Shown in pieces: positions 28,986-59,873 of a stretch of 64,000 nt of DNA. Numbering within the stretch: the stretch's first letter is position 1; each line of letters starts with the position of its first letter. The stretch lies in the NCBI GenBank assembly GCA_020137815.1, contig CM035360.1:6262001-6326000 (forward strand), in the 5' to 3' direction. This stretch comes from Hormiphora californensis. Its lineage: Eukaryota; Animalia; Ctenophora. Made by a program: the position numbers and the translations under genes. The notes under the pieces are model-generated. The model did not search any database. It had not been told where the DNA came from and saw only the letters and a list, made by a program, of their open reading frames with translations.

Positions 28986-29395
28986 GTTGAATGATTTGGT
29001 GTTAGAGGATATTCTCACTTACATTTTATACTAGGTTGCCCTTCATAGCTGCCAGATGTTTCTAAGTAAATTTGGCTATTGTTCATTTTGTTAGCAAGTG
29101 ACTATTAAATTTAAATGCTAGCTTGTCACGACTCCCTTTGTTCTTGGCGTCTCTTTCATCTCCCTCCTGTCATTTTACCATTAAGTATGGGATTTTTTGT
29201 ACCCAGCTTGTTTGTGTGATAAACAGTTTATCTACTGGATATTTCCCGGATGATCGTTTTAGCTCGTGTGCTAAAAATATCATATATAATACAGGGTTTA
29301 GAAATATCGGATTTGAAATGGTAACTCGCGTGTGGTCAAAATCGCGTAACAGTTCACGTCAGTGAATGGTAACTGCACCTTCATCTAACCAATTA

Positions 29396-29535
29396 CAGTC
29401 GGATCCCAATTTACTGGGATGCTCGGGAGAAGGGATTTGTCCGGTAAATCTGGGTCCTCGGTATATCGGAGTGAAAAACCCTTAATTTCCTAAGACGGGT
29501 GAAGTTTATCCTCCCGGTAAATCGGGGTCCGACTG
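29396..29535. mobile_element. TA-flanked MITE between the divergent promoters of proteases A and B
   Basis: TA|CAGTCGGATCCCAATTTAC...GTAAATCGGGGTCCGACTG|TA. Confidence 0.85.
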
Positions 29536-29817
29536 TAATTTATGTTTTGGCCCAGATATAACTATAAGCTCAGACCGGCTCAGAGAATTTCATTTTCAAT
29601 ACTAAATAGTATTATTTTTCTCCATGAATGCCCCGTCTAGAAGTTAAACAGATCCAGACGTGAATAACCCGTTTATCACATGAACAAGGGCCTTAAAAAT
29701 CCCACACAATGGTAATTGACAGGAGGGGGATGAAAGAGAAGCCAAGAACAAAGGGAGTTGGGGCAAACTAGCACGTACTTAGATCTAATCTTCACTTGCT
29801 AACAAAATCCACAAAAT

Positions 29818-29916
29818 GAACAATAGCACAATTTACGTAGTAACATCTGGCAGCTATGAAGAACCAACTAGTATAAAAAGTGAGTGAAAATATCCTCCAA
29901 CACCAAATCATTCAAC
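29818..29916 (+). promoter_or_regulatory. Conserved TATA promoter of the protease paralogs
   Basis: GAACAATAG, ACATCTGGCAGCT (E-box) and TATAAAA (29872) lie ~45 bp before the ATG. Near-identical blocks precede A, C, D and the 63.7-kb copy. Confidence 0.7.
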
Positions 29917-31155
29917 ATGAAAGTTATTGCAGTTCTCTGTCTATTTGGAGCAGTCTTCGCTGCCGAGGATGCTCTCAGGATAATCCTGAAGAGCAACAAG
30001 GAAACCCTCCAGCTCTACACTGCCTTCAAGTCCTCCGAGGGACTCAACTATGCCAGCTCTGAGGATAGGATGAGATTCAGGCTGTTCCGAAAGAGCGCTG
30101 AGGAGGTTGTCAACTACAACGAGAACAGTGACACCGCCGTCTTTGGACTCAACTTCTTCTCTTCCATGACTGAGGCTGAGAAGCAGCAGTACCTTGGACT
30201 CAACATCACCAACAAGGCCCCCAACGCCCCTGCCCTAAAGAACAGTGGATTCGCCGCCCCAGAGAAGGTCCTTTGGACCAACTTTGGTGGAGTTACCGAG
30301 GTCAAGAATCAGGGATCTTGTGGATCTTGTTGGACCTTCGGAGCCGTCGGAGGTCTGGAGACCCGATACCAGATTGCCTCTGGAGTTCTGAGAAACTTCG
30401 CCGAGCAGGAGTACCTCGACTGTGTCTACGAAAACCGAGACGGATGTGACGGTGGATGGCCTAGTAACTGTTACGACTACTCCAAGAAGAACGGTGGCCG
30501 ACTGGCTTCCACTGCCAACTATGGCTACCAGGCTACTGATGGCTCCTGCAAGGGAAGCAGCAAGGCTGACTCCATGGTCTCTGCCAAGATAACCGGCCAC
30601 AGGGATGTCCCTTATGGCGAGTCCTCCAACATCCAGGCTCTTGTTGATGGCGCTCTTGCTGTTGCCGTCGAGGTTACCAACTACTTCCAGCAGTACCGAA
30701 GAGGAATCATGAAGGACACATTCTGCACTGGACGAGTTAACCACGCTGTCACCACCGTCGGATACACCTCCAAGTTTGTTCTAGTAAAGAACTCCTGGGG
30801 ATCCAGCTGGGGAGATAACGGTTTCATCAAGTTCACTCGAGGATACAGCAACTGTGGTCTCTTCGAATACTCCAGCTACCCTATCCTCTCCAAAACTGGA
30901 AAGAGTGACAGCAACCCCGATGCTGCCACCCCCTACCGACCTTCTGAGAACGATGATGGTCCTGCTCCCAATCCCAACTGTAAGGACAGGGCTAGCAATT
31001 GTGTTATGGAGTTCTGTCAGTGGCCCGAAATTTCTGTGCCGTGGTGTCAAAAGACCTGTGGACTCTGTGACGATGATGATGATGATGGCGGTGACTGTCC
31101 CTCTGGAACTGTGAGGTGCTCTGATGGAGTCTGCCGACACGAGCACATGTGTTAG
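29917..31155 (+). CDS. Secreted C1A cysteine protease, paralog B: + ShKT + 4-Cys module, intronless
   Basis: ATG at 29917 ([15 protein letters not shown] signal); catalytic C/H/N motifs intact; CQKTCGLC; ends [19 protein letters not shown]. Confidence 0.95.
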   Translation: MKVIAVLCLFGAVFAAEDALRIILKSNKETLQLYTAFKSSEGLNYASSEDRMRFRLFRKSAEEVVNYNENSDTAVFGLNFFSSMTEAEKQQYLGLNITNKAPNAPALKNSGFAAPEKVLWTNFGGVTEVKNQGSCGSCWTFGAVGGLETRYQIASGVLRNFAEQEYLDCVYENRDGCDGGWPSNCYDYSKKNGGRLASTANYGYQATDGSCKGSSKADSMVSAKITGHRDVPYGESSNIQALVDGALAVAVEVTNYFQQYRRGIMKDTFCTGRVNHAVTTVGYTSKFVLVKNSWGSSWGDNGFIKFTRGYSNCGLFEYSSYPILSKTGKSDSNPDAATPYRPSENDDGPAPNPNCKDRASNCVMEFCQWPEISVPWCQKTCGLCDDDDDDGGDCPSGTVRCSDGVCRHEHMC

Positions 31156-31497
31156 ATATTATTGATACTGTACTTGTTAACAACACATGATAATAATTTG
31201 AGTTTTTATTTGTTTTCCCGGTAAACACACGTGGAATAAGGTCCTAGTTACCATTGGTTACATGGTTACATACTATGTAACCATGTAAACAATACATAGT
31301 TACAGTTTTGAAACTGATGCCAGGTTCCAGGTTTCCCATCCAGCTGTTATGTCAAAACAGACCTATCACAGTATGAATATTTCACAAGGACGTCCCTCCC
31401 ACCCATTTAGTCTCCCCACTGTCTATCATCGTGCAGAAACCATAGGGTCTACGTAAGACGGATATATCGTAACTGCATGCTCTTCTTGTAGTACCAC

Positions 31498-31849
31498 TGT
31501 TGTACTATGTGTAACCCTTTGGGTGGATGTCACATGAGCCGGCCTCTCAGACCGATCACGTGACTCTCCCCAATCAGGGCGATGCCTAGCTGAGGTGCTA
31601 TTCGAGATGGTTTACCATGGATTCAATTATCTCCAGGAAACCACCTCGAGTTAGTAACCCAAAGCCGGCTTACTGCAGGTCACGTGTCCATTAGGGACCA
31701 CGTGGTTGGAGAGTATAAAGGGTACAGAGTTTTTGTGTTCGGCACTCTTCTGGAGATATCGATTTATTCAGTTCGTTGCTAATTCATTAAGACCAGAAAA
31801 CCAACGTGTTTATCTTTGTCTAACCCGGTTACAGGATTACTATACCACA
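31498..31849 (+). mobile_element. Possible solo LTR
   Basis: TGTTGTA...TACCACA termini and an internal TATAAAGG at ~31714. No matching TSD or PBS seen. Confidence 0.3.
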
Positions 31850-33180
31850 AGAAACCGTGAGGGTGACCCGGCAATCGGCATACCCCGGGGTAAACCAGTC
31901 GGCTCCAGTGACACACTACCAAATCACCACAATCACTCACGGCCCCCACTAGCGGTGCTGGTATTACTAAGTGATTGATTTGATTTGATTTGATTTGGCC
32001 TTCGTGCGCAGTAGGGTCCCCAACAAGGGTTCACGCTCACGGCAACCAGTTTCCAGCCTTAACAAATTAAATCAAATCAAATCAACCGGGGGTGGGATCA
32101 AAACACCCATATATTCAACAAAAAGGTGCACAAAAAACGAGAAGGGGGGGTTGAAAACTTCAAAAGATCGGGCTTTAAGAGCAGCTATTTACATTTTCAC
32201 CGGACCCCTCGTACACCCACCCACCGTAGCATGGGTGTCACATAGTTAAATCTTGATTCTCCATCCCCCCTCCCCCGAATCAACATCATTTTAATATTGA
32301 TGGACAGAGCTTTGACTTCAAACTTTGCCATGATCATGCTATTGACCCACTTTTCAAGAAGAAAAAACCTATGTTCCGGAGATAATTTTTCAAACATGAC
32401 AAAATTATAATTTCAGACAATTTGGTGGGAATTACCAGAATTTGGTGCCGTTTCATTGGGTAGTTGAGGACTGAGGAGGTATACACTTAATCAAAGCGAT
32501 TCTCTTACCTCTACCAATGTGAATGAGACTAACAGTGCTGCTTGCAGTCAAAATACGGTAACGCAAAATACAGTAAGGAGACGCGCACGGTGCATAACGC
32601 GCGGCAAAAAGTTCATTTGTCAGCACGTACTAGCGCCCTGATTGGTCACGGTTGCGCGTCGTCTTACTGTATCTTCGTTTTCCATTACCGTTTTCCCACT
32701 ACAAGCGACCGTGTTATCGCGATTAACTATTCATACGGTTACCCCCTTTCTCTCTTCGGCAGCTTCTCTTTGGCTGTTGGAAAGTGATGCCAATCGGTGT
32801 TGGGGTTGGTGAATTTTCAGCTCACGTTCTCTTACCTTTAGCTCAGGTCGCTTCACAACCTTTGTGCACATTGTACTGGCAAAGAAGGGATAGCTTCGTA
32901 ACCTCTAACGAGCAGCCTTCTTAGTCAGGGTTTGCTCACACTGACTACGACGTCATTTTAAAATCATTTCGTCACTCAGCTATATTAGCTAGTTCAATTA
33001 GTTCATTTTACAGCCCAGATATTTGGCCATAATAGCACTTAAATTTAATAGACACTTGCTAACAAAATCCAGGAAAGGAACAATAGCACAATTTACTTAG
33101 TAACATCTGGCGGCTATGAAGGGCGGTCGACCTAGTATAAAAAGTGAGCGAGAATATTTTCCAACACCAAATCATTCAAC

Positions 33181-34665
33181 ATGAAAATTATTGCAGTTCT
33201 CTGTCTGTTTGGAGCAGTCTTCGCTGCCGAGGATGCTCTCAGGATAATCTTAAAGAGCAGCAAGCAAACCCTTCAGCTCTACTCCGCCTTCAAGTCCTCC
33301 GAGGGACTCAACTATGCCAGCTCTGAGGATAGGATGAGGTTCAGGCTGTTCCGAAAGAGCGCTGAGGAGGTTGTCAACTATAACGAGAACAGTGACACCG
33401 CCGTCTTTGGACTCAACTTCTTCTCTTCCATGACTGAGGCTGAGAAGAAGCAGTACCTTGGACTTAACATCACCAACAAGGCCCCCAACGCCCCTGCTCT
33501 GAAGCACAGTGGATTCACCGCCCCCGAGAAGGTCCTTTGGACCAACCTTGGTGGAGTTACCGAGGTCAAGAACCAGGGAAACTGTGGATCTTGTTGGACC
33601 TTCGGAGCCGTTGGAGGTCTAGAGACCCGATACCAGATTGCCTCTGGAGTTCTGAGGAACTTCGCCGAGCAAGAGTATCTGGACTGTGTCTACAATGATC
33701 GATGGGGATGCGACGGTGGATGGCCTAGTGACTGTTATAAATACTCCAAAAAGAACGGAGGTCGACTGGCTTCCACTGCCAACTATGTCTACCGCGGTCA
33801 TGATGGCCCCTGTAAGGGAAGCAGCAAGGCCGACTCCATGGTCTCTGCCAAGATCACCGGCTACAGGGATGTCCCCAGTGGCGAGTCCTCCAACATCCAG
33901 GCTCTTGTTGGTGGTGCTCTTAACGTTGCATTCCAGGCTACCAGCTATTTACAGCAGTACCAAAGAGGAATCATCAGGGACACCACTTGCCAGGGACCTC
34001 CCAACCACGCTGTCACCGCCGTCGGATACACCTCCAAGTTTGTTCTAGTAAAGAACTCCTGGGGATCCAGCTGGGGAGATAACGGTTTCGTCAAGTTCAC
34101 TCGAGGATACAGCAACTGTGGTCTCTTTGAATACTCCAGCTACCCTACCCTCTCCAAAACTGGAAAGAGCGACAGCAACCCCGATGCTGCCACCCCCTAC
34201 CGACCTACTGAGAACGATGGTCCTTCTCCCGATCCCAATCCTGATTGTCAGGACAAGGCTACCAACTGTAAGGATTTCTGTAGCTGGCCCACAATTGCCG
34301 AGGAGTATTGCCGAAAGACCTGTGGACTTTGTGACGATGATGGAGATGACTGTCCCTCTGGAACCGTGAGGTGTTCAGATGGAATCTGCCGACACGAGCA
34401 CATGTGCCCCACTCCTGATCCCACTCCTAGCCCCACTCCCGTTCCTACTCCTGATCCCACGCCTGCTCCCACTCCTGCCCCCACTCCTGCTCCCACTCCT
34501 GCTCCCACTCCTGCTCCCACTCCTGCTCCCACTCCTGCTCCCACTCCTGGTCCTGACTGTGAAGACGAGGCTTTCAACTGTATTCCAGATTTCTGTAGAT
34601 GGGCCGACGTTGCTGAGCTGTATTGCCGAAAAACCTGTGGACTCTGTGACGATTATATGAGTTAA
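33181..34665 (+). CDS. Secreted C1A cysteine protease, paralog C: + ShKT + 4-Cys + (PTPA)n + ShKT, intronless
   Basis: 494-aa ORF; [17 protein letters not shown]; two CRKTCGLC motifs. Confidence 0.95.
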
Positions 34666-35126
34666 CAACACATGATAACGATTTGAGTTTTATTTTTTGT
34701 CATGGAAAACCAGACTTGGGGAGTCATAATGAACCCTTTATTATAATTCAGTGTTGACAAATGTTTTTAACTGACATTCAAAACAGTAGGACCCCGATTT
34801 ACTGAGTCTCGATTTATCGGGAGGATAAACTTCCCCCGATATAGGAAATCGACAGTATTTGATCCCGATTATATATACCGGGTACCCCGATTTAACAGGT
34901 AAAACCCTTTCCGCCGAGCATCCCGGTAAATCGGGGTCCGACTGTACACACGAAGGTCGTGAGCCGGCCTGAACTAGGCGTAACTCACTCTAAAAAGTAA
35001 CACCTCCTCAACCACTCAATGAAAATGCACCAAATTCTGGGGTTTCCCACCAAATTGTCTGAAAATTATAATTCTGTTCTCATATTTGAAAAATTATCAC
35101 CGGAACCTTGGTTTTGAGATCAGTTT

Positions 35127-35369
35127 TTGGGTACGGTGTCCCCTCTCTCCCGAATTAAACGTAGCGTGCGAGACAACATGAGACAGAGACAGCATAGGAC
35201 GATAGAAGAAAGAGGGGATAAAGTCCAATTTTTAAGAAAGCGAACTGGGGGCACGCGAATTCAATTTTTGAATTGAAATTGGTAGTGTGCAACGTGTGAT
35301 GTGCGTGAAATGCTCTGATTTGCGTGCAAACGGTTCGCTTAATTAAAAATCGCACTTTATCATACCCAA
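35127..35369. mobile_element. Mutator-like non-autonomous element with 9-bp TSD
   Basis: GATCAGTTT|TTGGGTA...TACCCAA|GATCAGTTT. It is inserted into an older repeat (34990-35420) whose inverted homolog lies at ~32340-32490. Confidence 0.7.
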
Positions 35370-36380
35370 GATCAGTTTTAGGTGTTTATGAAGAAGTTCT
35401 TTTCTTGAAAAGTAGGTCAGGTATTTTCAATATCATATTATTATCTTCAAAGATCTGGCCATGAAAATTATTTAAGAGGTCTTGAACTTTGAAGTCGGAA
35501 GTTTCGTAAAAACATGTTATAGCACAGCTTCTACTGTGCTAGATTGAACCTGGTTTGAAACAATGAACTGCAAATTCATCCCTTCGGAAAAGGATGAACT
35601 TTGAACACGCCAGCTCTGCAATATGGCATATTATTGTGTTTGTATCAGAGGTAAAGGGAAGGTATAGCCTCACTGTGCCGCTCAGGCTGCATATTACGGA
35701 TCCCTGATAGAACTGCTAGGGAGTAGAGCCAGAATCCAGATAATTCAATCTGTGCATTGACAGATTGTGTGCTTTCTTCACATGCATGAGACATCACGTG
35801 CGACGTGATCAGTAGAAAACACCGCCTATTCTCTGAAAAAAACACAATTCATTATGTGCAGATGGAATTATCTGACTCAATTCCCTGTGGTCCGGCTCTT
35901 TCACCGAAATGAGGAAGAAAAGTGAAGACACCTTTGACCCAGTGACCCTTTTTGCTTCAAAAAAAAGTCAAAATTAATCTACCATTGAAACTGTACGTCA
36001 GTTGAGAGAGTGTATCAACATTATAACTTGCATCGTTTTTGTTTACGCTCCAGTTACAATATAAGAAACTGAATCCAGGTTCCAGATGGGAGATTCTTGA
36101 TGAACCACGATGCGAGTGATCTGCGATCACATGACACAAGTTTCCATGTGAAACGTTTAGAGATTAGAGCTGCGTGTAATGTGTGTGTGGCTTGGTAACG
36201 AAATTACCCCTACCTTGCTGGCACGCTAAAAGCTGCTTTACTACCGCGATGTCATAGTTATGAGGGGAAATTTCATTACCAAGTGTGTTGCTCCAATCTC
36301 TAACTGGGCTTACCGAGACCAAACAAATAAAAACTCAAATCAGTATCATGTGTTGTTAACAAGTACAGTATCAATAATAT

Positions 36381-37622
36381 CTAACACATGTGCTCGTGTC
36401 GGCAGACTCCATCAGAGCACCTCACGGTTCCAGAGGGACAGTCACCGCCATCATCATCATCGTCACAGAGTCCACAGGTCTTTTGACAATACTTGTTAGC
36501 AATGTCGGCCCACCTACAGAAATCCTGAGTACAGTTGATAGCCTTGTCCTCACAGTCGGGATCGGGAACGGGAGCGGGACCGTCATCGTTCTCAGAAGGT
36601 CGGTATTTGGTGGCAGCGTCGGGGTTGCTGTCAGCCTTTCCAGTTTTGGAGAGGGTAGGGTAGCTGGAGTATCCAAAGAGACCACAGTTGCTGTATCCTC
36701 GAGTGAATTTGACGAAACCGTTATCTCCCCAGCTGGATCCCCAGGAGTTCTTCACCAGAACAAACTTGGAGGTGTATCCGACGGCGGTGACAGCGTGGTT
36801 GGGTCGTCCACTGCAGGTACTGTCCCTGATGATTCCTCCTCGGTACTGCTGGAAGTAGTTGGTAACCTCGAAGGCAACAGCAAGAGCACCATCAACAAGA
36901 GCCTGGATGTTGTTGGACTCACCACTGGGGACATCGTTGTAGCCGGTGATCTTGGCAGAGACCATGGAGTCGTCCTTGCTGCTTCCCTTGCAGGAGCCAT
37001 CAGTAGCCTGGTAGACATAGTCGGAAGTGGAAGCCAGTCGGCCACCGTTCTTCTTGGAGTAGTCGTAACAGTCACTAGGCCATCCACCTTTGCATCCGTC
37101 TCGCCTATCGTAGACACAGTCCAGGTACTCCTGCTCGGCGAAGTTCCTCAGAACTCCAGAGGCAGCCTGGTATCGGGTCTCCAGACCTCCGACAGCTCCA
37201 AAGGTCCAGCAAGATCCACAAGATCCCTGGTTCTTGACGGGGGTGACAGCTCCAGTGTTGGTCCACAACACCTTGTGAGGGGCGGAGAGGCTAGCTGTGG
37301 GAGGGGCAGGAGCGTTGGGGAGATGATTGGTGATGTTGAGTCCAAGGTACTGCTGCTTCTCAGCCTCAGTCATGGAAGAGAAGAAGTTGAGTCCAAAGAC
37401 GGCGGTGTCACTGTTCTCGTTGTAGTTGACAACCTCCTCAGCACTCTTTCGGAACAGCCTGAACCTCATCCTATCCTCAGAGCTGGCATAGTTGAGTCCC
37501 TCGGAGGACTTGAAGGCAGTGTAGAGCTGGAGGGTTTCCTTGTTGCTCTTCAGGATTCCCCTGAGAGCATCCTCGGCAGCGAAGACTGCTCCAAACAGAC
37601 AGAGAACTGCAATAACTTTCAT
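36381..37622 (-). CDS. Secreted C1A cysteine protease, paralog D: + ShKT + 4-Cys module, intronless
   Basis: ATG at 37622; catalytic motifs intact; NKYCQKTCGLC; terminal CRHEHMC. Confidence 0.95.
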   Translation of the reverse strand: MKVIAVLCLFGAVFAAEDALRGILKSNKETLQLYTAFKSSEGLNYASSEDRMRFRLFRKSAEEVVNYNENSDTAVFGLNFFSSMTEAEKQQYLGLNITNHLPNAPAPPTASLSAPHKVLWTNTGAVTPVKNQGSCGSCWTFGAVGGLETRYQAASGVLRNFAEQEYLDCVYDRRDGCKGGWPSDCYDYSKKNGGRLASTSDYVYQATDGSCKGSSKDDSMVSAKITGYNDVPSGESNNIQALVDGALAVAFEVTNYFQQYRGGIIRDSTCSGRPNHAVTAVGYTSKFVLVKNSWGSSWGDNGFVKFTRGYSNCGLFGYSSYPTLSKTGKADSNPDAATKYRPSENDDGPAPVPDPDCEDKAINCTQDFCRWADIANKYCQKTCGLCDDDDDGGDCPSGTVRCSDGVCRHEHMC

Positions 37623-38504
37623 GTTGAATGATTTGGTGTTGGAGGATATTCTCACCTACTTTTTATACTAGTTCGTCTTTCATAGCTGCCAGATGTTACT
37701 ACGTAAATTGCCCTTTTGTTCATCCCTTTCGTGAATTTTGTTAGCAAGTGAAGATTAGATCTAAGTGCTAGTTTGCCCCAACGCCCTTTGTTCTTGGAGT
37801 CTCTTTTATCTCCCTCCTGTCATTTTACCATTGTGTGGGATTTTTAAGGCCCTTGTTTATGTGATAAACGGGTTATTCAAGTCTAAACTGGATCTTTTTA
37901 TGTCTATACGGGGCAGTTATGTAGAAAAATAATATTTCAAAAACAGTCTCTAAGCATAGTAGCTGCCTTCTGGGCTGAAAAATAAACTAGTTGAACTAGC
38001 TAATATAGCAGCGCGACGAAAAGATTGTCAAATGACGTCAAAGATCAACAATGTGAGCTAAAATCGAACCTCAATTCACCAGGCTGCTCGTTATAATAGT
38101 AAGAGGGTTAGAAGGGTAAAAGTACGTAATATTTGTGAAGAAAATTGGTAACCCCCAGAATCTAGATATCGAGAGAATTTTAACTGTCCGGAACATTGAA
38201 CATATATAGCGTATTTTAATCTTTGTCAAATATTTTCATCCAAGTCTATTTCGCTAGATCCAATTTGTCACACGTCTTCCACAAGTTAGTGTGGCCAATG
38301 CTTCTCAAATGAAGTGCTAACTAGAATACTAATTAAATCGCATAAACCCTCCCAGAACAATACCATCCACTATCCAGTGTGAGATCATAAAATCCCTCCC
38401 TAAATCCCTCATTTAGTCTACCACCTGTTACTAGCTGTAATTCCTGGATCCCCCACTATAAAATATGGGCATCCCAAACACCTCCCTCAACTTATTCCAC
38501 AAAC

Positions 38505-39635
38505 ATGAAGTTTTTCACTATCATCTGTGTTCTTGGAGTTGCCCTCGGTCACGAGGCGCCCCTAAAGGAGATCCTCAAGTCAACCGCAGAGACTCTCAAG
38601 CTTTACAAGAGCTTCAAAGCCGAGGAGGGACTCCGGTTCGGGACTGAGGATAGGATGAGGTTCAGGCTGTTCCGAAAGAGCGCTGAGGCGGTTGTCAACT
38701 ACAACGAGAACAGTGACAACACCGTCTTTGGACTCAACTTCTTCTCTTCCATGACTGAGGCTGAGAAGCAGCAGTACCTTGGACTCAACATCACCAATCA
38801 TCTCCCCAACGCTCCTGCCCCTCCCACAGCTAGCCTCTCCGCCCCTCACAAGGTGTTGTGGACCAACACTGGAGCTGTCACCCCCGTCAAGAACCAGGGA
38901 TCTTGTGGATCTTGCTGGACCTTTGGAGCTGTCGGAGGTCTGGAGACCCGATACCAGGCTGCCTCTGGAGTTCTGAGGAACTTCGCCGAGCAGGAGTACC
39001 TGGACTGTGTCTACGAGGGAAGTAGGAACGGATGCAATGGTGGATGGCCCGATGATGCCTACAAGTATAGTGCGAAAAATGGAGGTCGCCTCGCTGCCAC
39101 CTCAACCTACTACTACAAGGGCCGGGACGGTAATTGTCGAGCTGACAGGAACAAAGATGCCATGATCTCCGCTAAGATTGTGGGAGCTAGAGGCGCTGGT
39201 CGTGGTGAGCAGGCTAACATTGCCGCCATCGCAGAGGGTGCCCTTGCTGTCGCTTTTGAGGTTACCAACTACTTCCAGCAGTATAGCAGGGGAGTTATCA
39301 AGGACACTACCTGTGGGGGACGACCCAACCATGCAGTAACTGCTGTCGGTTACACCCCTCTCTTTGTGCTGGTCAAGAACTCATGGGGTGGAAGATGGGG
39401 AGACTACGGGTTTGTAAAGTATGCCCGAAATCACCACAACTGTGGGCTGTTTGATTACTCAAGTTACCCCCTGCTTACAATGACTGGCAGAAGCGATAGT
39501 AGCCCTGACCAGGCTAGTATGTACAGGCCCAAGGAGGATGATAAGCCCGCTCCTCCGCCCAACCCTGATGGTGAGTGTGCCAGTGGAACCGTGAGATGTC
39601 CTGATGGAGTTTGCAGACACGAACACATGTGTTAA
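38505..39635 (+). CDS. Secreted C1A cysteine protease, paralog E (most divergent): 4-Cys module only, no ShKT
   Basis: 376-aa ORF; signal MKFFTIICVLGVALG; TATAAAA at 38457; ends CASGTVRCPDGVCRHEHMC. Confidence 0.95.
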   Translation: MKFFTIICVLGVALGHEAPLKEILKSTAETLKLYKSFKAEEGLRFGTEDRMRFRLFRKSAEAVVNYNENSDNTVFGLNFFSSMTEAEKQQYLGLNITNHLPNAPAPPTASLSAPHKVLWTNTGAVTPVKNQGSCGSCWTFGAVGGLETRYQAASGVLRNFAEQEYLDCVYEGSRNGCNGGWPDDAYKYSAKNGGRLAATSTYYYKGRDGNCRADRNKDAMISAKIVGARGAGRGEQANIAAIAEGALAVAFEVTNYFQQYSRGVIKDTTCGGRPNHAVTAVGYTPLFVLVKNSWGGRWGDYGFVKYARNHHNCGLFDYSSYPLLTMTGRSDSSPDQASMYRPKEDDKPAPPPNPDGECASGTVRCPDGVCRHEHMC

Positions 39636-41032: not shown

Positions 41033-44000
41033 AATTCCAGTCCATCGTAGGGGTGGGGTCCGGTCAGATCAATACTTGCACCCTGTGTCAGTCCACTTCC
41101 AATCCCACTATCGGCTGCCGGCACCGGGTCCTGAAGGTGTTGGAAAGAATTAAACGGGGAATGAAATCTAGATTACCATCTACATTACCATGGATTATTT
41201 TCACTAAAATTGGAGCAGGGAGCTGAGTAACTAGTTTTACTGTGGTTGTTATGGTTGCTATGGAGCATGTTTCCATAGCAACCAACTCACCTCCTCCTCC
41301 TCACTAGGACTCACATCCTCCACCACCACCTCCTCATCGCCCTCACCCTCTTCCTCCACTATGATTGGCTGTACGTTGATCACGTGATGTGGACTGTGAG
41401 GTGGCAGCTCGTCTGGAACGGAGTGGGTGTCATGGTGACGAAGATGCTGCTCCTCAGGAGTCATGGTGTCACCATGGTGACCATCATTGGGATTTGTAGT
41501 GGCATCACCATTCAACAGAGGTTGTGTGCCAATATTATCATCATCACTAGGTAACTGCTCGGTAGGTTCAGTAGTTGGAGCGTTTTCAGTGGGATCGCGT
41601 TGTGATTCATCCACTGGTTTCTGAAATAAGTGAATAAGTGAGGATTATAATTTATATATATGTCAATTAAACCTCGATTTTAGAGATAACCTGGGAGAGC
41701 TCGAACCTGAACACTTTGTGTTTCATCCCCATTTGTAGCAGTTATCCGTTTCCATGACAACTTCATCCTCAACTTTGTCATTTGTGGTAGATTCACTGTT
41801 AGTTTTATCCACTGCTGCACTATCAACGGCCTTGGATTCCTTTTCTTCCCGCTGTTCCTTATTGTGAACTAATGTTAGAAACTTGACACAATTATGACAT
41901 TCAAATTGAGGGAAAACAGTCGTGCCTGAATCTCAGGTCACGGCTATTTACCCCTGAGACCTCAGGGCCGCCGGGCCGGAGTAAATAGCCGTAACCTAAA
42001 CCTGAGGTTCTGTCACGACTGTTTTCCCCAATATTGGCAGTACCCTTCAATCTGTGCTTTAGTAAAACTACAAATAAACTTCCTCTTTTTAAAATGGCCT
42101 TGAAGTGCAGTGCAGCTTTTCATGTAACATATTAGGCACACACACCCACACAATATCTTTATTCTCTCACATTCTGAAAACCCCGTTCAAACCCGACTGC
42201 AGTATATATGCTTGTACACCACTGCAGCTCTCACCTTCAATATCTCATCCAAAAGGAGGATATTACTATCGACATTGAACGTAGCAACGGGCCTTGGTTC
42301 ACCCTGTTCTGTGCTACTGGCCTGCAGCACGCTACTACAACCTCCACTTGTACTGTTCTCACGACTCAGACTTCCTAACTCGGCTAGACGCTTATCCATT
42401 TTCTCCTAGTTGTGACAGACACACATAGACATAATGTTGGGTTGAATGGGCTGCAATCTGTATGACAAACTCACTGCACAACTCTATGCTCACCCACGCT
42501 TGCAGTTCACGGTGCTTCTATCTTTGTATGCTATCTCATACTACATTGACAGGCAAACAGGCTAGTGCTCGGGATCCCTTCAACGATATGATCAAAAAAC
42601 AACTTGAGGACAACGTCCTATAATTTCTTAACCCATTCAGCACTGCCAGCATTAGTCTTGCAAGATTGTTGTGTTTGGTTAATTATGAAAGATGCGATTG
42701 AATCATGCCGTGCTAAAAATAAAATATTGACAAGCATAAAATGAAGGCTGAAGGTGTCAGTTTATAATGTAAATGGAATCAATACGACAGTGCTATAACA
42801 CAATATGTATAACACTACCTCGAGCTAGAACTACTGCAGTAGACAACAAGGGGCAGTTAAGGGTACGCTAACCAAAATTTTTTTTCGAGTGCAGGGCAAT
42901 CTCTCACCGTAGGGTTGTAGGCCATGCCAAGGAGACCTCAAATATGCAATTTGAGCTCTCAAGTCGAATTCATATTTTTGCTACAGCTGCTTGAAAAATG
43001 TCCTGTAAATACGTTTTTGGCATCTCAAAAAAATTTTTTTAAAGATAGGAGCATGAAAATTTAGGGATTTGAAGAGGACATGAAGGTGAATAACCACAAA
43101 AAATTTTTTCGCAATCCGAGCTGATTTCCGGTCCTGAGATGGATTTCTTTTTTTCCACTTTAACGCCCTATTTGGCAAACTTCCGAAAACATGTGAAAGC
43201 TGTAAATTGGTGAAAAGTTGCGTCTAACGATTATCTAAGTGGCCATAAATTTTGGGCGCGTCCTTATTTGAGATAAGCTGTACAGAGTTTTTTTTGTGAA
43301 AGCCGTCAGTTCAGAAATAAATAAATTCTCTGTATCTCAAAAACGACTGATCGTAGAGACCTGAGACTATGCTTAAACGATTCAGAAGGTCCGATTTTGG
43401 GGGGGTCTTCTGAGAGACATTTTGCTCCTACTTCAACCGTTTTTGCTGTAATTGCGAAAAACAAATTCTATGAAAAGGGCAAAAGTTAAACTCCAATATT
43501 CTGTAATTGGGAAATTTTAGCTAAGAAAGGACCGAAACTATGGGAAAATGTGTTGCAAGCTAATTCATTCACTATTTGGTCCATATGGGTCCCTATAATC
43601 ACCAAAAACAAAATCACAAAAAATCCACGATGGCGAAGATGGGTTTTTGTTTTTCGCAATTACAGCAAAAACGGTTGAAGTAGGAGCAAAATGTCTCTCA
43701 GAAGACCCCCCCAAAATCGGACCTTCTGAATCGTTTAAGCATAGTCTCAGGTCTCTACGATCAGTCGTTTTTGAGATACAGAGAATTTATTTATTTCTGA
43801 ACTGACGGCTTTCACAAAAAAAACTCTGTACAGCTTATCTCAAATAAGGACGCGCCCAAAATTTATGGCCACTTAGATAATCGTTAGACGCAACTTTTCA
43901 CCAATTTACAGCTTTCACATGTTTTCGGAAGTTTGCCAAATAGGGCGTTAAAGTGGAAAAAAAGAAATCCATCTCAGGACCGGAAATCAGCTCGGATTGC

Positions 44001-47000
44001 GAAAAAATTTTTTGTGGTTATTCACCTTCATGTCCTCTTCAAATCCCTAAATTTTCATGCTCCTATCTTTAAAAAAATTTTTTTGAGATGCCAAAAACGT
44101 ATTTACAGGACATTTTTCAAGCAGCTGTAGCAAAAATATGAATTCGACTTGAGAGCTCAAATTGCATATTTGAGGTCTCCTTGGCATGGCCTACAACCCT
44201 ACGGTGAGAGATTGCCCTGCACTCGAAAAAAAATTTTGGTTAGCGTACCCTTAACATACCTTTAATTTCCCCTTGAATGCCGTCAAGGCTCGGATGGTAC
44301 TAAACTTTCCAGCCAGCTTACCCCACCACTTCTTTCCTGACTGAAAAGTAATCAGTGTTTTATAAACACCATACACCAAAGCTTTACAAAAGACTAGGCT
44401 ACGGCAATGGATTGTTATATCAATGATAACTCACCGATCCCTTGCCAAGTTTTATCAGCATTTCAGATAGATATTCATCATCAAGCATAGCTGCTATACT
44501 GTGGGCGTTCAAACCTTCCTCATTGCCAATATCAGGGTCAGCTCCTAACAGGGGATCGGACATTATTATTTTGTTTCAGGGTTTTACTACCATAGTAAAA
44601 ATGTAAGTAGGTCAAGTATAATGAACTTTTTGAGCTAGTCAAGGAGATGAAGAGGGAACTATGTACCTGCGAACAGTAGGTACTCCACCACTCTGTAATG
44701 ACCGTGAAACACAGCTTGCATCAGGGCAGTCCACCTGGAAGTATAAGATAAACTAAATTCCTGAACTACTTGATACACTCAGCTGAGCTCAGAACTCTCA
44801 AATCAAAAGCAAATCACCGTTAATTATTTTGCAAAACTTAATTCCTGAACTATTCAATACACTAGGTCGACTCTCTGCTCAGGCAGATATATCTATATTT
44901 TGTAAAACCAGACCCTTAGACTCACTGGTTCTTATCACATCGAGAGTTGATATCAATCCCATCCTCGTCTAGCAGCCACTTGATGATATCCAACTGGCCG
45001 ATCACTGCTGCAAACATTAGTGGTGTACCCCCACCTTTCAGTCGGCTATCCGGGGATTCCAGCTGCCCTACCAGCTCCTGGATCGAGAGTTAGGAATTGT
45101 AATCCTTGTTTTCAGTGAGGGAATATATAATGCGGCTAACAATCAACTACTCCTTATTCTATACTCTTGAACAAGACTAATCATCACTCTCTCGACAGAT
45201 TGAAATTATTTGAATTGTTCATACTTTCTTTTTATTCTAAAAATCACGGACACAGTGTCAGGCGAATCAAGAAATTATAAAGATTGGATGGATCAAATGA
45301 AAGACCTACTTTTACTATGTCGAGATCCCCATCCTTTATTGCCCCTGAGATCGCCTCACTGCTATCAGGCAGTGCTTCCGCTATTAATGTCATTAGTGCA
45401 CCCTTCTGATCTCCCTCTACTGCCCTTAGCACCTACAATGATTTGTTACTCAATAAATAATGATGAACTGCTGATAAAGCATTACAGAGAGAAGCTTAAT
45501 AGTCTAACCGTTAGGATGAATGTTACGCTTAATTTATATGGCTATGAGCGTTATATGTGAAGTGCAATAGAACATCTAATTTGATTAAAAACTAAATTGC
45601 CAGCACCAAAAACCAACAAGACTATTATTTAGATAGATTTTGGATAATTATGATTTAGGGAAATTATCCCAGCTGGACTGACGTGAAGATCGAACTCTCG
45701 TGTACACTCACTACACTCTCGTGAGTAAGAATAATTATAGGGTAAACGGATTTAGGGTAAAAGACTTTTACTAAAAGTCCAGTAGGCGGTTATCCCGAGA
45801 GGGGCGGTGGAGTGCAATCATCGTCGGCAATATTTACATAAAGTTAGTATAATTGCCCTAGTGTCGATGTCCAGATCAACCAAAATATGTGTACAAAACG
45901 GGATTGGAAACTAAACGTAGAAGTGAGGTAAATAATTAGTGTATCTCCATTCAGGAAGTGCAACATGGAATGAACTGAAATCTCATTGAAACAGTTCTAC
46001 TATGCAAGTGTGGTAGGTGGAACTCACCACTTCTAATCAGACATGAAATAGCTAGCTCATTACGTGGGAGTTGAGAAAGTTGAGCTATGTAAATTATCTG
46101 GATACTGTGCGATAAAAAGAGAGTACAAACATAAATATCACACATAACTAGGTCAAGCATTCTACGATATATGTGAATATTACTAGATCTCTGTAAATAG
46201 TGAGTGGTCTAGTCAAGGTGAAGATACACGTAGTAACTAGTAAAATATAAATAGGCGCCAATTATAAAACTTTGGCCGTCTCTTTATCTACATGTTTACC
46301 AAGATTTCATGCATATGGACATGGAAAATTAGAGAAAGAAATGACATTGCACGTGCAAAATTGCTTGTCTGGAACGATAATGGATCGATATGAAAAATCA
46401 AAAAGAGATAATAGGTTCGAAACTTATGACAATCACATAAAATGATTGACAGTGATCCAGACAGGGCAGTTAGGACAGACAGATCTGGAACGATTGGATG
46501 AGTAAGAACCAAAAGAAACAGGGAGAGATACTGAGATAGAAACGATATCTATATAGAAACGAGAGATGAGAGAGAAAGATAGAAAGATGAGAGAGATTGG
46601 CAGAGATATAATAATAATATAGAAAGAAAGATAGATGGAGAGAAAGAAAAAGAAAGAGAGAATGGCATTATCAATAACTAATCTTTAGTTTTAGTTTCGG
46701 CATAATGACCTCCCTCCCTATTCAAGTGAGTCGTAATGGACCAGTGACCTGATCATTGGGAAATTGTGTATGTGTGAGAGAACGGCCATTAGCGATCAAT
46801 GGAGAGAGGAAGAGACAATGAAGAGGAGAGAGGGAACACCAGAGATGAAGGAGAGATGATCATGGTGATGAGGGAGAGGAAAAAATCGGGGGAAAGAAAA
46901 AATATGAATGAATGGGAGAGATAACTATGTGATAAGGTGGTATACTAACAGGAAGTTGGGATAGATTCAAGATCAAACAGTATTATATAATGACTAAGAG

Positions 47001-53740: not shown

Positions 53741-54533
53741 TAGTAGAGTCGATAACTACATCGACCTCTCCCAATTGTTCCAGTTTTTGTCACATCTGTT
53801 TGGAGCCTCGACACGACCTCTAAACAGGTGTTACTTTTTCACAAACTGTTTTCATCTTGGTGTAATCAGCAGTTGAAATGTTGCTAATCATAACAAAAAC
53901 CTGACTAAATTTTTTCAACTTGGGGTAAAACCATGGGTGTCAAAAGTTAGCTCTAGGTCCCCTGAGTAACCATCCGGAGACTCTAAGAGATATTTCAAGC
54001 CGTTCTCCCGTAATCATTAATCCCGGTGGAGAAAAAAATACAATGCGGACGTACGTGAGCGCTGGCAGGCTGTTTACATGTTATTGTATGTCTCTCACTC
54101 TCTCTGGAAAAACCGCACGTGCGGTTGCGCCGCGCGAGATAACTCTTTCTCAAGGGGGAGAAAAGAGAGAGACGCACATTAACGTTATACATTAAAGTTG
54201 AGGTTGTAGGCAATTGCACGTACGTCCATACTCAAATATGTGCTCTACCGGGATTAATGATTACAGGAGAACGGCTTGAAATATCTCTTAGAGTCTCCGG
54301 ATGGTTACTCAGGGGACTTAGAGCTAACTTTTGACACCCATGGTTTTACCCCAAGTTGAAAAAATTTAGTCAGGTTTTTGTTATGATTAGCAACATTTCA
54401 ACTGCTGATTACACCAAGATGAAAACAGTTTGTGAAAAAGTAACACCTGTTTAGAGGTCGTGTCGAGGCTCCAAACAGATGTGACAAAAACTGGAACAAT
54501 TGGGAGAGGTCGATGTAGTTATCGACTCTACTA
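53741..54533. mobile_element. Foldback MITE with ~287-bp TIRs (TAG...CTA termini, Academ-like)
   Basis: TGT|TAGTAGAGTCGATAACTAC...GTAGTTATCGACTCTACTA|TGT. An alternative reading gives a 5-bp TSD ATGTT. Confidence 0.88.
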
Positions 54534-54792
54534 TGTTGTTTCTTCTTTTGACTAAACAATGACGATTTGTTTACATATTAATATTATTCTCCGCTTTCAA
54601 GACACCATTTCAGATAGCTTGCAGGCATGGCCAATGGGCAAGAAACAAGAAGTGTGTAATTGAAAGAGATTCGCTCCAAAATAATTTGAATTCTGATACT
54701 CATAGTATTACTATCCGAATGTTTAGTGGGTTTAAATGTAAGGGTGTGTTACACTTTCCAGGCGTGTTACACGTTTGGCGTGTTACACGTTT

Positions 54793-54906
54793 GGGATGGG
54801 AATGGTTGTGTGATGTGTGTCGTTGCTGCCAACTTCCACCGCTCACATGACAAGTCCGATCAGTCCACCTCCCCGTGGTCCATCCTGGGTCATGCTAAGA
54901 GACTGA
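54793..54906 (+). ncRNA. HDV-like self-cleaving ribozyme (minimal P4) at the RTE 5' end
   Basis: P1 GGGATGG (54793-99)/CCATCCT (54880-86, G1-U wobble); P2 TCAGTC/GACTGA; P3 ACC/GGT around L3 TCCCCGT; P1.1 CC/GG; J4/2 GCTAA with candidate catalytic C54895. Confidence 0.82.
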
Positions 54907-56531
54907 GGGGCAATGCGGCGTGTCGTGCTAGCAACTCGTCACGCTTTAAAATCTTGCTACGAATCTCTCGGTGTCCTCCTCAAATTTGGCGTCGGTGAAA
55001 GCTGGCAAGCACCTTATTCCGGACAGCGAGGTTAGGGTGACCAGAGGACGGGAGGAGGGTAAAGCTGGGTCAGGTGATTCGGGGCCCTCCGACCTGATGG
55101 GAGTCTCGGATCTGGTGTCATTCAATCGCAGAGTTATTTCTGGCCAACACATCCCTGGTGTGGCCGCTCCGGGTTCTTTTAGTTCCTTTAGTTCTTTTAA
55201 GCCAATTAATGCAGTCCGTAATCATTTTCATCTGGCAACTTGGAATGTTTTATCTCTACAGTCATCATCCTCTAAGTTGTACGAATTATCAAACGCAGTT
55301 TCATCTTTCCAACTTGACGTTTTGCTTCTCACAGAAACGCACTGGCCTGGTACGGAGGTTATGACCCTGGATAACGGGCATCTTACTCTGGCAGCCGCAT
55401 TTCGCCATTATGGTCTTCCAGAGAAGTATGTCCGGATAATTCGAGCATTCTTTGACGGTACTATGAGTGCAGTGAAACATGACGGGGAGCTCTCCAGCTG
55501 GTTCAGTGTCCTCAGTGGTACCGGTCAGGGCGACATTCAGGGTCCACCAGTCTTCAACATCGTGATTAACTGGGCGGCTCAGCTCGCTGAGTCCAACAAG
55601 ACGGTCTCTAGGGGTCTCACTCTTCATGGCGCTGAGAGTGATGGGGGTGGAGAATGGATCTTGGATCTCGATTATGCTGATGACATGGCTGTAATGGATG
55701 ATACTGAGGAAGGGCTCCAGGAGTCAACAAATTTGCTGGTAAAATACGCAGGGTACGCTGGTCTGAAGATTAATGCGAAGAAGACCAAAGTTGTGGCTTT
55801 TTCAAAGGGTCTTAGCCAGCGCCCATTTTCAGAGGCGGATACGGTCAGCATCTCTGTGGAGGGTAATCCGGTTGAGCAGGTTTCCAGTTTTACCTATCTC
55901 GGATCGGCGTTGTCCTCTGACGTTACCATCGACAAGGAGCTTGGTATCAGGATAGGGAAGGCTTACAGTGCATTCAGTATGCTTTGTAGGATCTGGTACA
56001 ACCGTAACATCAGGACCTGTACCAAGATCAGGATATACAGAGCTGCTGTTCTGACAGTTCTTCTCTATGGTTGTGAGGCCTGGACAACTACTCAGGTCCA
56101 AGATCGCCGGGTGGAGGCGTTCCACCAACGGTGCCTGCGTAGAATCCTGAGAATACAGTGGTTTAGGAGAGTATCTAACAGGGAGGTACTGGAGAGGGCG
56201 GGGATAGAACCAATCTCGAAGTTCATTGGCAATGGGAGACTCCGCTGGTTTGGACACCTGATTAGAATGCCTGAGGGTAGGGTGCCCAACAAACTCTACC
56301 ACTGGGTGCCTAGTCATGGGAGACGTTCCAGAGGAAGACCGCGTAAAACCTGGTCCTCCTGTGTGCTGAATGATTATCGAGACGCTACGGGTCAATCCCA
56401 GTCTCTCCGTGCAATTACTAACACTGCAGAGAACAGAAATGAGTGGAGACAGCTCACGTCATTACGAGCGAGGATACTTGGAGCCGGCCACTCGAATGAT
56501 TGAGGAGACCGTACCAAGTACAAGTAAGTAA
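54793..56531 (+). mobile_element. RTE-clade non-LTR retrotransposon, internally deleted
   Basis: ORF 54971-56503 has the APE N-terminus (ATWNV, LLLTETHW) fused to RT (GQGDIQGP, YADD, FTYLGS, LLYGCEAW, LRWFGHLIRM, GRRSRGRPRKTW). (CAAGT/AAGT)n tail. 12-bp TSD GTGTTACACGTT at 54780-54791 and 56532-56543. Confidence 0.92.
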
Positions 56532-57954
56532 GTGTTACACGTTCCAGCCTCGTCCACAGTCCAGCAGTGACCGAGAACAACATGCCAGGGAGCTCAGGAG
56601 CTCTGCTTCTCAAAATTCCCAATCAATCAAGCCTGGAAAGTGTAATTATTTCTCATTTATTTCAAAGAGGAAACGAGAGCCGTGGTCGGTGCATCGGCCT
56701 GACAGCTTCTTTCCGAGCAACGGAATATGGCCAAAAATGTCCAAAAAAGTGTGAATTTTATTTTCCGTGTCTGCCGCAAGAGTTTCAAAATATTTTTTAC
56801 GCTGCATTACCCAAATGCGCGTCGTAATCCAGTGCGCGCGCGTTGCAATTTAAAAACTTGAAACATGACCGCAACGAGGGGACTGGAGGGAATGCCGCGC
56901 GCGCGTTTGGCCTGATCCCGGCCGGGTCGAAGATAACTTTGCGGTCGAAAAAACGGCGGTGCTTATAACTTTGGCTCCTGAAGTCCGTTTGACTTGATTC
57001 TTTCACCAGTTGTTAGATCTGACGATTATCTACCTTGCTGTTTTTGAGAGAAGTTAATTGGACTTAAGGAGGCTGAGCAATAGCCGTTGAAAGATGGGTT
57101 GTTTTCAAAAAGTGACGTCACAGATTCTTGCAGGGACACCTTTTTAAAAATTTCATTCAAATTTTGATTTTACCGCACTCGATTTTGCGGAGTTTGGTTC
57201 ATATCTCCTGTTCCTGATAAGATAGAGACCTGAAACCGGTTGCATTTGAAAGCTGTTATCTTCCTCTTTCCAACGCTACCAAAACGATTTCTGTACCTTA
57301 TCTGGAACCGGAGATATGATTGATTATGTATTCCCCCCTAGCGCGGTATTCCCTCCAGGCCCCTTATATTATATTATAAGGGGCCTGCAACGTATGCCAA
57401 CGAAAAATGGGAACAACCCCCAAAATCGAGCTGTCTGCCGTTTCCTTTCGTTTTCTCGGTTGTTAATGCATAAATTAATAAGCGTGTAGGATACATCATA
57501 AACGAGCTGAAAGTTGTTTTAAGTGATTTTTCACAAGTTTACGAATTACGGTCATTGCCTGAAGGCTGAAAGTTTCACTTAATTAGACTTTAAACAGGAC
57601 AGATCAGCGATGACATCCATACGACGAACTCCATGAGCAAGAATTGTTGTATGTGCTACAGTCCCATCAAATCGTGTCAGAAGGGACTGCAGCAGCGTAT
57701 GCCAACCGGCAACGAGATAAAAAAATAGATCCGATAACCGATTTTTGCTATCGCCTCTGATATCAACGCTGAAAAAGGTGCAAGTTTCGATTCATCTCTT
57801 GCTGCTCTAGTTAATTTTGTTCACAAACAAATTTTCCTCGTCAAATTAAAAACCATGCATTTTCAAAGAATAAAATGATCACGAGAAAGAAAAAGAGAAC
57901 AATATTACATTTAATTTTACACACATCAAGTTTCTAGACAAATAAGAGTGTATG

Positions 57955-59034
57955 CTAGTCCGCTTCAACTATCACAGTTTCTGACATCACCCTCTGTATG
58001 GGCTCTACCTTCCGTGACATTGCCTTCATCGAGTAGTTCATTCTTCTTACCGTCTGGACCGTGCTCATCAGGTCTTCAACCTGAGTTTTACCCATCCATT
58101 TATATACTGTGTTCCATATGAACCTCTTGAATCGTCCATTAGTCAGGGTATAGATAATTGGGTTGCACGCTACGTTGACATAGTACAATTCCACCTGGAG
58201 GATATAAAACCAGCTGGGCATGGGCACAGTTAACACTTGCAACATGGCCCTGAGACAGAGGGGTGTGACTGATATAACAAACACCCATGATACAGCTGAT
58301 ACAGTGATGACTGCGTTCCTACTGATAGCTGCCTTCTTCCCAGCCTTCTTCGCAGTGTATTTGCTGGCTATGTAGAGAATTGTCAGGTTGCTAACTATGA
58401 TTAGAAGGACCGGTAGACCCCCGAATAGGGTGACACATGTTATGGTGTATGCGAGCTGGGACCTGTCTGCTGATAGTCCACTTGTATTGCACGCCAGGAT
58501 ATACGGGTCAAAGAATGTATATTGTCCCATTATAAAGACAGCGTTAACAACAAATAGGATACTCAAACCCCACACTCCCGCCATGATCTTTTTCCCGTGA
58601 CTCTTGCCCAGGTTTTGTGCAGTGAACGGTTTCAACAGCACGAACACCCTGTAACTTGAGATCAACACCAGGGTTATTAGTTCACAGAATGTGGGTATGT
58701 AGCCCACCATACCCTGAATAAAACACATCGCTGTACCCAGAACCCATTTCCGGGTGATCAGAGTGATGAGAATGGTAGTGCCGGAGAGGAAGGCGATAAT
58801 GAAATCAGTGAATGCCAGATGTTCCAGGAAGATGAGAGATACAGAATCCATGCTGATTGCGTTGAATTTGAGGGTTCCATACAGGACGATAGCATTTCCA
58901 AACAGTGCTAGGAGGAGCACTGGTAGGTGGTATACGATTAGCACCACATAGGCCCACTCGTGAAAGTTGAGGTAGTCGTTGATGTCTGTTATCTTGGTTT
59001 GGTTTGCTGTATCCACGAATATCAGGTCAGGCAT
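57955..59034 (-). CDS. Class A orphan GPCR, intronless
   Basis: 359 aa, 7 TM; FGN, LAFTDF, WVLGTAMC, SYRV at the DRY position, CNPIIY. Confidence 0.92.
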   Translation of the reverse strand: MPDLIFVDTANQTKITDINDYLNFHEWAYVVLIVYHLPVLLLALFGNAIVLYGTLKFNAISMDSVSLIFLEHLAFTDFIIAFLSGTTILITLITRKWVLGTAMCFIQGMVGYIPTFCELITLVLISSYRVFVLLKPFTAQNLGKSHGKKIMAGVWGLSILFVVNAVFIMGQYTFFDPYILACNTSGLSADRSQLAYTITCVTLFGGLPVLLIIVSNLTILYIASKYTAKKAGKKAAISRNAVITVSAVSWVFVISVTPLCLRAMLQVLTVPMPSWFYILQVELYYVNVACNPIIYTLTNGRFKRFIWNTVYKWMGKTQVEDLMSTVQTVRRMNYSMKAMSRKVEPIQRVMSETVIVEAD

Positions 59035-59873
59035 GGCTAGGTGCTAGGTGGGAATAGTTGGAGTTAGGGGAGTTGAGGAGAATGGGAATAGTTTGGGGCT
59101 CAAAGGTTTGTTTTGTTTTCAAACTGATCATTACTCTCCCATCTCTTACTCTTACACAAGTTATATGCAGGGGCATGTGCTCAACAACCACGTAGGACAT
59201 GTTCAATTAAACAGCTCCTAGTTCACTGTTTACTAAAGTTTCACTGTTAACTATAGTTCATGGGGCGTGCTCTCTTTCGTTCATCCATCACCCCACTCTC
59301 TTTATGTTATGTAAGGAATCCTGCAACGTTCTTTTCCAGCATAAACACAACGCATAATATTGTTCTCTCCACTCGACACTGCATGTTAAATTATTACTGC
59401 AGTGTACGTGATGTCCAGCGAAGAACAGAGTTTAAGTTTTCTCACCAGGAACTTTGCTCTAAAGATCGTTTTGACTCTTTTTGTTAAATGTTTTGTCTCT
59501 CTCACTCCCTACCTCTATCCATATCTCTCTTTCTCTCCCTGTCTCTCTCTCTCTCTCTCACTCCCTACCTCTCTCCCTCGGTTAAATGCTCTGTCATCAG
59601 TTAATTTTATCATAATTACTCAGTGAAGGAATATGTGTGTTTGACATTTTGACAAGCCTATGTAAAATATGTTGACTGTTGATATAGTGTACCTATTTAA
59701 GCCTGATAATAACGTGCCTATACCCTCCTGAGACTAAAGGAAGACCACCAATCAATAATGTAAATATATTCAACCTTAGTCTCTAACCAAATGTAACCAA
59801 ATGTATCCAACTCTAACCAATTCTTTCCAATTCAAACCAAATGTAACCAGATCTCTCCAAGTTAGCCGGTAGT

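Follow-up and report, generated by a model that had tools for sequence, protein, structure and literature searches.

A P4-less HDV-like ribozyme motif at the 5' end of an RTE-like retrotransposon family in a ctenophore

HDV-like ribozymes have been described at the 5' ends of several retroelements, among them R2, L1Tc, Baggins and RTE (PMC6765202, PMC5786205), and the P4 stem that is common in these ribozymes is presented in PMC3774820 as dispensable. According to the same source, five R2 ribozymes of silkmoths cleave without P4, a C-to-U change abolishes cleavage in that of S. cynthia, an abalone ribozyme (Haliotis discus; citing Webb and Luptak 2011) has 5 nt in place of the stem, and the predicted R2 ribozymes of sow bug and horseshoe crab failed in assays. 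P4-less ribozymes of gut phages appear in PMC10879173 under the names minimal drz and theta. In drz-Agam-2-1, a P1.2 hairpin, an extended P2 and short linkers are reported to accelerate cleavage, with a gain that can reach about three orders of magnitude (PMC4908430). As for the host elements, the RTE clade is characterized by a single ORF of about 1000 amino acids with APE and RT (PMC5850137), and PMC5786205 describes internally deleted, non-autonomous RTE elements in which both ends of the parent are kept and the middle is lost. R2 elements are on record from ctenophores (PMC13188248, PMC5035012), and among the literature matches listed none describes a ribozyme from this phylum.

Here we analyze a 64-kb stretch of the genome of Hormiphora californensis, hereafter the window, in which positions 54793-54906 are confirmed, at the level of sequence, as a well-formed HDV-like motif without P4. 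P1, P2, P3 and P1.1 are ordered as a nested double pseudoknot, the U, C, C and G of L3 lie at conserved places, and J4/2 contains the catalytic C and A54897-98 (Table 1). We take L3 to carry the equivalents of U20, C21, C22 and G25 of HDV, and C54895 to occupy the position of C75. All the elements of the double pseudoknot that a sequence-only reading of the window had proposed are present, each where that reading had placed it. Its estimate of about 60 nt for J1/2 is also right, and so is the near-absence of P4, as only 6 nt and no P4 stem separate P1.1 from the C at the catalytic position. It had however called the ribozyme minimal, which is overstated for a molecule of 114-119 nt with a 47-nt hairpin in J1/2; P4-less is the appropriate word.

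Table 1. Predicted parts of the ribozyme and features of the element that carries it (positions in the window)
Feature	Position	Strand	Description
P1	54793-99 / 54880-86	+	GGGATGG / CCATCCT; 7 bp: G1·U (G54793·U54886), then 6 Watson-Crick pairs
G1	G54793	+	predicted cleavage 5' of G54793; 5' end of the family
J1/2	54800-59		60 nt
P1.2-type hairpin within J1/2	54805..54851	+	47 nt; 9-bp basal stem and 4-bp apical stem
P2	54860-65 / 54901-06	+	TCAGTC / GACTGA; 6 Watson-Crick pairs
Possible P2 extension	54854-57 with 54908-11	+	4 bp; putative, from complementarity alone
P3 and L3	54867..54879	+	P3 ACC/GGT; L3 TCCCCGT
P1 3' strand and P1.1 GG	54880..54888	+	
P1.1	C54871, C54872 with G54888, G54887		
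Strand replacing P4	54889..54894	+	6 nt, GTCATG (GTCAT at 54889-93)
J4/2 and P2 3' strand	54895..54906	+	J4/2 with C54895; P2 3' strand at 54901-06; GCTAA at 54894-98
First target-like unit	54746..54761	+	left copy of the alternative 16-bp TSD; 15/16 alike to 56532-56547
31-nt stretch	54762..54792	+	two 12-mer target copies, short linkers, final T
Left TSD candidate	54780..54791	+	12 bp, perfect
Open frame	54950..56503	+	517 codons; first in-frame ATG at 55097; Pfam RVT_1 match
3' UTR	56504..56533	+	short; ends in CAAGT/AAGT tandem repeats
Right TSD copy	56532..56547	+	perfect over 12 bp, or 1 mismatch over 16 bp

With the ribozymes of RTE and Baggins elements, including drz-Agam-2-1, this locus shares an RTE-type element, a site at the 5' end, a structured J1/2 (P1.2) and a probable extended P2; it differs from them in lacking P4, in its ctenophore host and in being known here from sequence alone. 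The five R2 ribozymes of silkmoths (those of B. mori and S. cynthia among them) resemble it in belonging to an animal non-LTR element, in having no P4 and a long J1/2, and in the conserved catalytic C and A of the L4-J4/2 strand. However, as PMC3774820 describes them, those R2 elements reside in 28S rDNA, 28S sequence forms P1, and J1/2 spans 216-498 nt, whereas the window element is RTE-like and dispersed and its J1/2 has 60 nt. The replacement of P4 has the same size as in the abalone ribozyme, which is also found in an animal. The phage minimal drz and theta ribozymes equally have no P4, but their J1/2 is short and they occur in phages, often beside tRNAs, while here a 60-nt J1/2 is found in a retroelement. 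The sequence-only reading's idea of an animal retroelement with a naturally occurring variant almost devoid of P4 is thus true to the sequence but has precedents, and the novelty it implied is overstated: active P4-less HDV-like ribozymes at the 5' ends of animal retrotransposons are already published (PMC3774820). It is likely, on the other hand, that an HDV-like ribozyme is noted here for the first time in a ctenophore.

G54793 is the 5' end of a multicopy RTE-like family. We sampled family copies through public contigs aligned to 54735-54935, and found no cover as far as 54783 and its onset at 54789-54794 in 4/4 runs from two organisms; one of the runs, X1, may stem from the source of the window itself, so that for this site it does not count as independent. 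Among the 14 rows listed with loose upstream letters (the table has 2 further rows), 11 rows, representing 14 contigs, break at 54789-54794, ten of them with foreign flanks and one with a second copy of the start of the element itself; the remaining three break at 54811, 54851 and 54888. The earlier claim that the cleavage site marks the element's 5' end is borne out in this respect, the predicted site being the family boundary across copies.

This break in cover across copies is better support for the 5' end than the target-site duplication (TSD). The 12-bp repeat GTGTTACACGTT is indeed present at 54780-91 and 56532-43, with a single T between the left copy and G1, but it does not provide the clean independent support that had been claimed for it. 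It is ambiguous because an empty allele, seen in one X5 contig with 6 ambiguous letters, links 54755 to 56542, and the 31 nt at 54762..54792 are missing from this allele. Further target-like copies start upstream at 54746 and 54764, and the first GT of the right TSD is shared with the last AAGT repeat. Two histories fit these data: in one, a small tandem repeat predates the insertion and the TSD measures 12 bp; in the other, the TSD measures 16 bp, a single mismatch included, and integration left 31 nt of additional target copies at the 5' junction. Under both alternatives, element-specific sequence begins at G1. Strict target specificity was considered and rejected, since 3' flanks differ.

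Three further observations concern the copies sampled. Among the 11 rows that break at the boundary, 7/11 match T at -1 and 4/11 match TTT, an enrichment with P values of 0.016 and 8e-5 respectively, both post hoc and from alignments that may run over mismatches; the G1 of L007, a relative described below, is likewise preceded by TT. These T's may have been added by the RT without a template, or may reflect a preference in the choice of target. Also, two contigs (X5 records 26 and 31) diverge right after the GG of P1.1, at 54888, where P4 would start, and one of the two, about 89% alike, begins precisely at G1. They may be broken copies or members of a sister family with another P4; if such a sister family shares the genome, the loss of P4 would be captured within one lineage. 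Lastly, runs X10 and X11 contain the family, ribozyme included, in a second organism (54793-56520), with 2 differences in 108 nt over the ribozyme in X10 record 11 (about 98% identity), which may reflect a close species or horizontal transfer.

The fold heads an element of about 1.74 kb, the last part of which, up to 56533, consists of CAAGT/AAGT repeats. Within the element, an open frame of 517 codons fuses the start of APE, with the frame maintained, to the RT's second half; over parent residues 1-138 and 703-1071 it shows 97% identity to P0001, a single-ORF APE-RT protein of 1071 aa (PF03372 and PF00078). The 564 residues in between (139-702) are missing, with a junction at about 55385-55395. 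With the greater part of the endonuclease gone, and half the RT as well, the window copy must therefore be non-autonomous, and could only move with the proteins of an intact parent such as P0001. Like the internally deleted RTE elements already described, it keeps both ends of the parent and loses the middle; unlike them, it still has an open frame with about 1.1 kb of sequence coding for RT, and the deletion is read here in one copy. At the junction, the parent sites share TCTGG, 7 nt more were lost and the frame stays open; the deletion looks microhomology-mediated.

By its sequence, the family fits an RTE-like assignment: the single APE-RT ORF of the parent P0001, the short, repeat-ended 3' UTR without poly(A) and the 12-16 bp TSD match the description given in PMC5850137. 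The same kind of 3' end occurs in the related loci L001-L003, L007, L008 and L011. The best species-named protein relatives come from Mnemiopsis leidyi (52-58%), the PDB matches for RT are L1 and R2 proteins only, and the RNA runs X15-X20 contain only 12-17% of the query words. Separately, a long hairpin at 55046-55102 ends right before the in-frame TGATG start and has counterparts before the start in two relatives (L002 268-325 and L003 820-877). It is a possible translation signal, and a weak Rfam match to SECIS_1 (L003 826-885, E 0.33) falls on it.

We looked for the ribozyme in metagenome loci with a related APE, taking the best 80 of 509 confirmed loci, 66 of them with at least 300 nt upstream. 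Many are distant, judging by contig names, and may be decayed or truncated, and they have little bearing on the clade. Across these 80 of 509 loci a strict HDV descriptor gave no match, and a looser one matched 1/80 versus 0.1 in 20 shuffles. At the 5' end of L007 (38% identity) lies a full HDV fold (71-240), with a 9-bp P2 and a long P4 (31-nt region); L007 shares the P3/L3 core with the window element while its P1 differs. The same core is found in L008, with no clean P1, and no HDV core was detected by the looser descriptor in L001-L003, the closest of the best 80 (53-65%). The P4-less form has so far been seen, among the best 80 of 509 loci, only in the family of the window element.

In the window itself, an HDV descriptor that was drafted after the site had already been seen has a single match over the two strands, whereas 200 dinucleotide shuffles gave 0.015 matches per window. 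Searches with Rfam gave seven matches in 54000-56000, none of them to an HDV-type family; when restricted to 54770-54930 (161 nt), the sole match was drz-agam-1, in the correct register and below threshold (11.9 bits versus a gathering score of 37; E 5.6). The Rfam HDV models are narrow, because they also miss the clear core of L007. The exact core pattern has no match in GTDB genomes, and no relative was found in viral contigs; two viral matches to the core pattern were rejected as not ribozyme-like.

The substitutions listed among copies are compatible with the core of the fold. Ten substitution rows are listed at nine places, eight in J1/2, one in P2 and one in L3, and none falls in P1, P3, P1.1 or J4/2; G1, C54895, the G of L3 and the A's of J4/2 are untouched in this list. 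The substitution in P2 (C54861T, fixed in X11) turns a C-G pair into U·G and so keeps the pairing, the hairpin variants at 54830 and 54850 retain their pairs as wobbles, and the L3 substitution (C54873G) sits at a position that we take to be variable in HDV. The core tolerates all ten (expected share 0.68-0.72; P 0.02-0.04), and nine are tolerated when the J1/2 hairpin is counted with it (P 0.003-0.017), under compatibility rules that we set ourselves and in copies that are young and related. Two-sided compensatory changes number zero among the ten listed, all pair-preserving changes being one-sided wobbles, and for this reason, together with the relatedness of the copies, the pattern makes modest evidence for the fold. 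Nine rows of indels are also listed: a 1-nt deletion in L3 is common in X1 (depth 122/651), the loss of a single G at 54887 (18/531) leaves GG in place, and an insertion at 54846 disrupts the stem of the J1/2 hairpin.

Taken as a model, a P4-less HDV-like fold that self-cleaves before G54793, at the 5' end of an RTE-like element, and so releases the element's RNA from read-through transcripts is in our opinion quite probable. The ribozyme would fold after read-through transcription and cleave 5' of G54793, with C54895 acting as the general acid, as known for the HDV family; cleavage would free the element RNA out of the longer transcripts, and a parent-encoded protein would carry target-primed reverse transcription to G1, so that full-length insertions would start there. 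In this molecule, the J1/2 hairpin and the extended P2 could hold P1 and P2 together, by analogy with the pinch of drz-Agam-2, and we infer that they may offset the missing P4.

Folding predictions give a mixed picture. The two main stems of the J1/2 hairpin have pair probabilities of 0.95-1.0 (0.27-0.37 for the middle pairs), and should P2 be extended, linkers of 5 and 2 nt would remain in J1/2; otherwise 13 nt of J1/2 are left unpaired. In ViennaRNA, P1, P2 and P3 have probabilities of at most 0.01 each, and an alternative fold in which L3 pairs with a downstream G run reaches -40.2 kcal/mol, versus -26.6 kcal/mol for the native fold's nested part, with P2 and P1.1 not yet added. As this program scores nested folds only, without pseudoknots, the competing fold flags a risk of misfolding, and nothing beyond. 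Two related ideas were discarded: common L3 variants do not abolish the competing fold (-40.3 and -39.1 versus -40.2 kcal/mol), and a 9-bp P3'/J4 hairpin of the 114-nt fold drops to a probability of 0.01 once downstream sequence is added.

It could be argued that the fold is kept but slow or inactive, serving to protect the RNA or to promote translation, the 5' end then coming from a transcription start near G1. The competing fold and the missing P4 would be in line with this, as would the unpaired J1/2 nucleotides if P2 is not extended, given that long linkers are reported to slow drz-Agam-2-1 (PMC4908430); HDV folds have moreover been proposed to help translation and RNA stability (PMC6765202), and the close relatives L001-L003 have no detectable core. 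We nonetheless find this explanation rather improbable, in view of the listed substitutions, which spare G1, C54895, the G of L3 and the A's of J4/2, of a boundary that falls within a few nt of G1 in 4/4 runs, and of the activity of P4-less R2 ribozymes documented in PMC3774820. A chance look-alike within a 5' UTR is very hard to believe, for even with a post hoc descriptor, an Rfam E-value of only 5.6 and no compensatory pair changes, far fewer than one such match is expected per window, G1 coincides with the family boundary, and the distant L007 combines, at its own 5' end, this P3/L3 core with another P1.

With self-cleavage before G54793 as the favored reading, it is a more tentative proposal, and one that we hold to be doubtful as a whole, that this is the first HDV-like ribozyme of Ctenophora and at the same time a compact example from nature of how a J1/2 (P1.2) hairpin, together with an extended P2, replaces a lost P4. 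If true, ribozyme-defined 5' ends of retrotransposons would extend to one of the earliest-branching animal phyla, the known processing of such elements remaining unchanged. The 119-nt sequence would also be a natural construct for finding out if a structured J1/2 makes up for the absence of P4, which PMC3774820 leaves open for the far larger silkmoth R2 ribozyme.

The rest of the window holds other features. Inverted arms of 317 nt (96%) at 53741-54533 and of 610 nt (100%) at 42856-44255 are both MITE- or foldback-like, and a single-exon gene for a rhodopsin-family GPCR (PF00001), for which no relative with a species name was found, lies on the minus strand at 57955-59043. A cluster at 27400-39000 is made of duplicated segments, in either orientation, with coding-like repeats of 12 nt, and is probably a tandem gene family.
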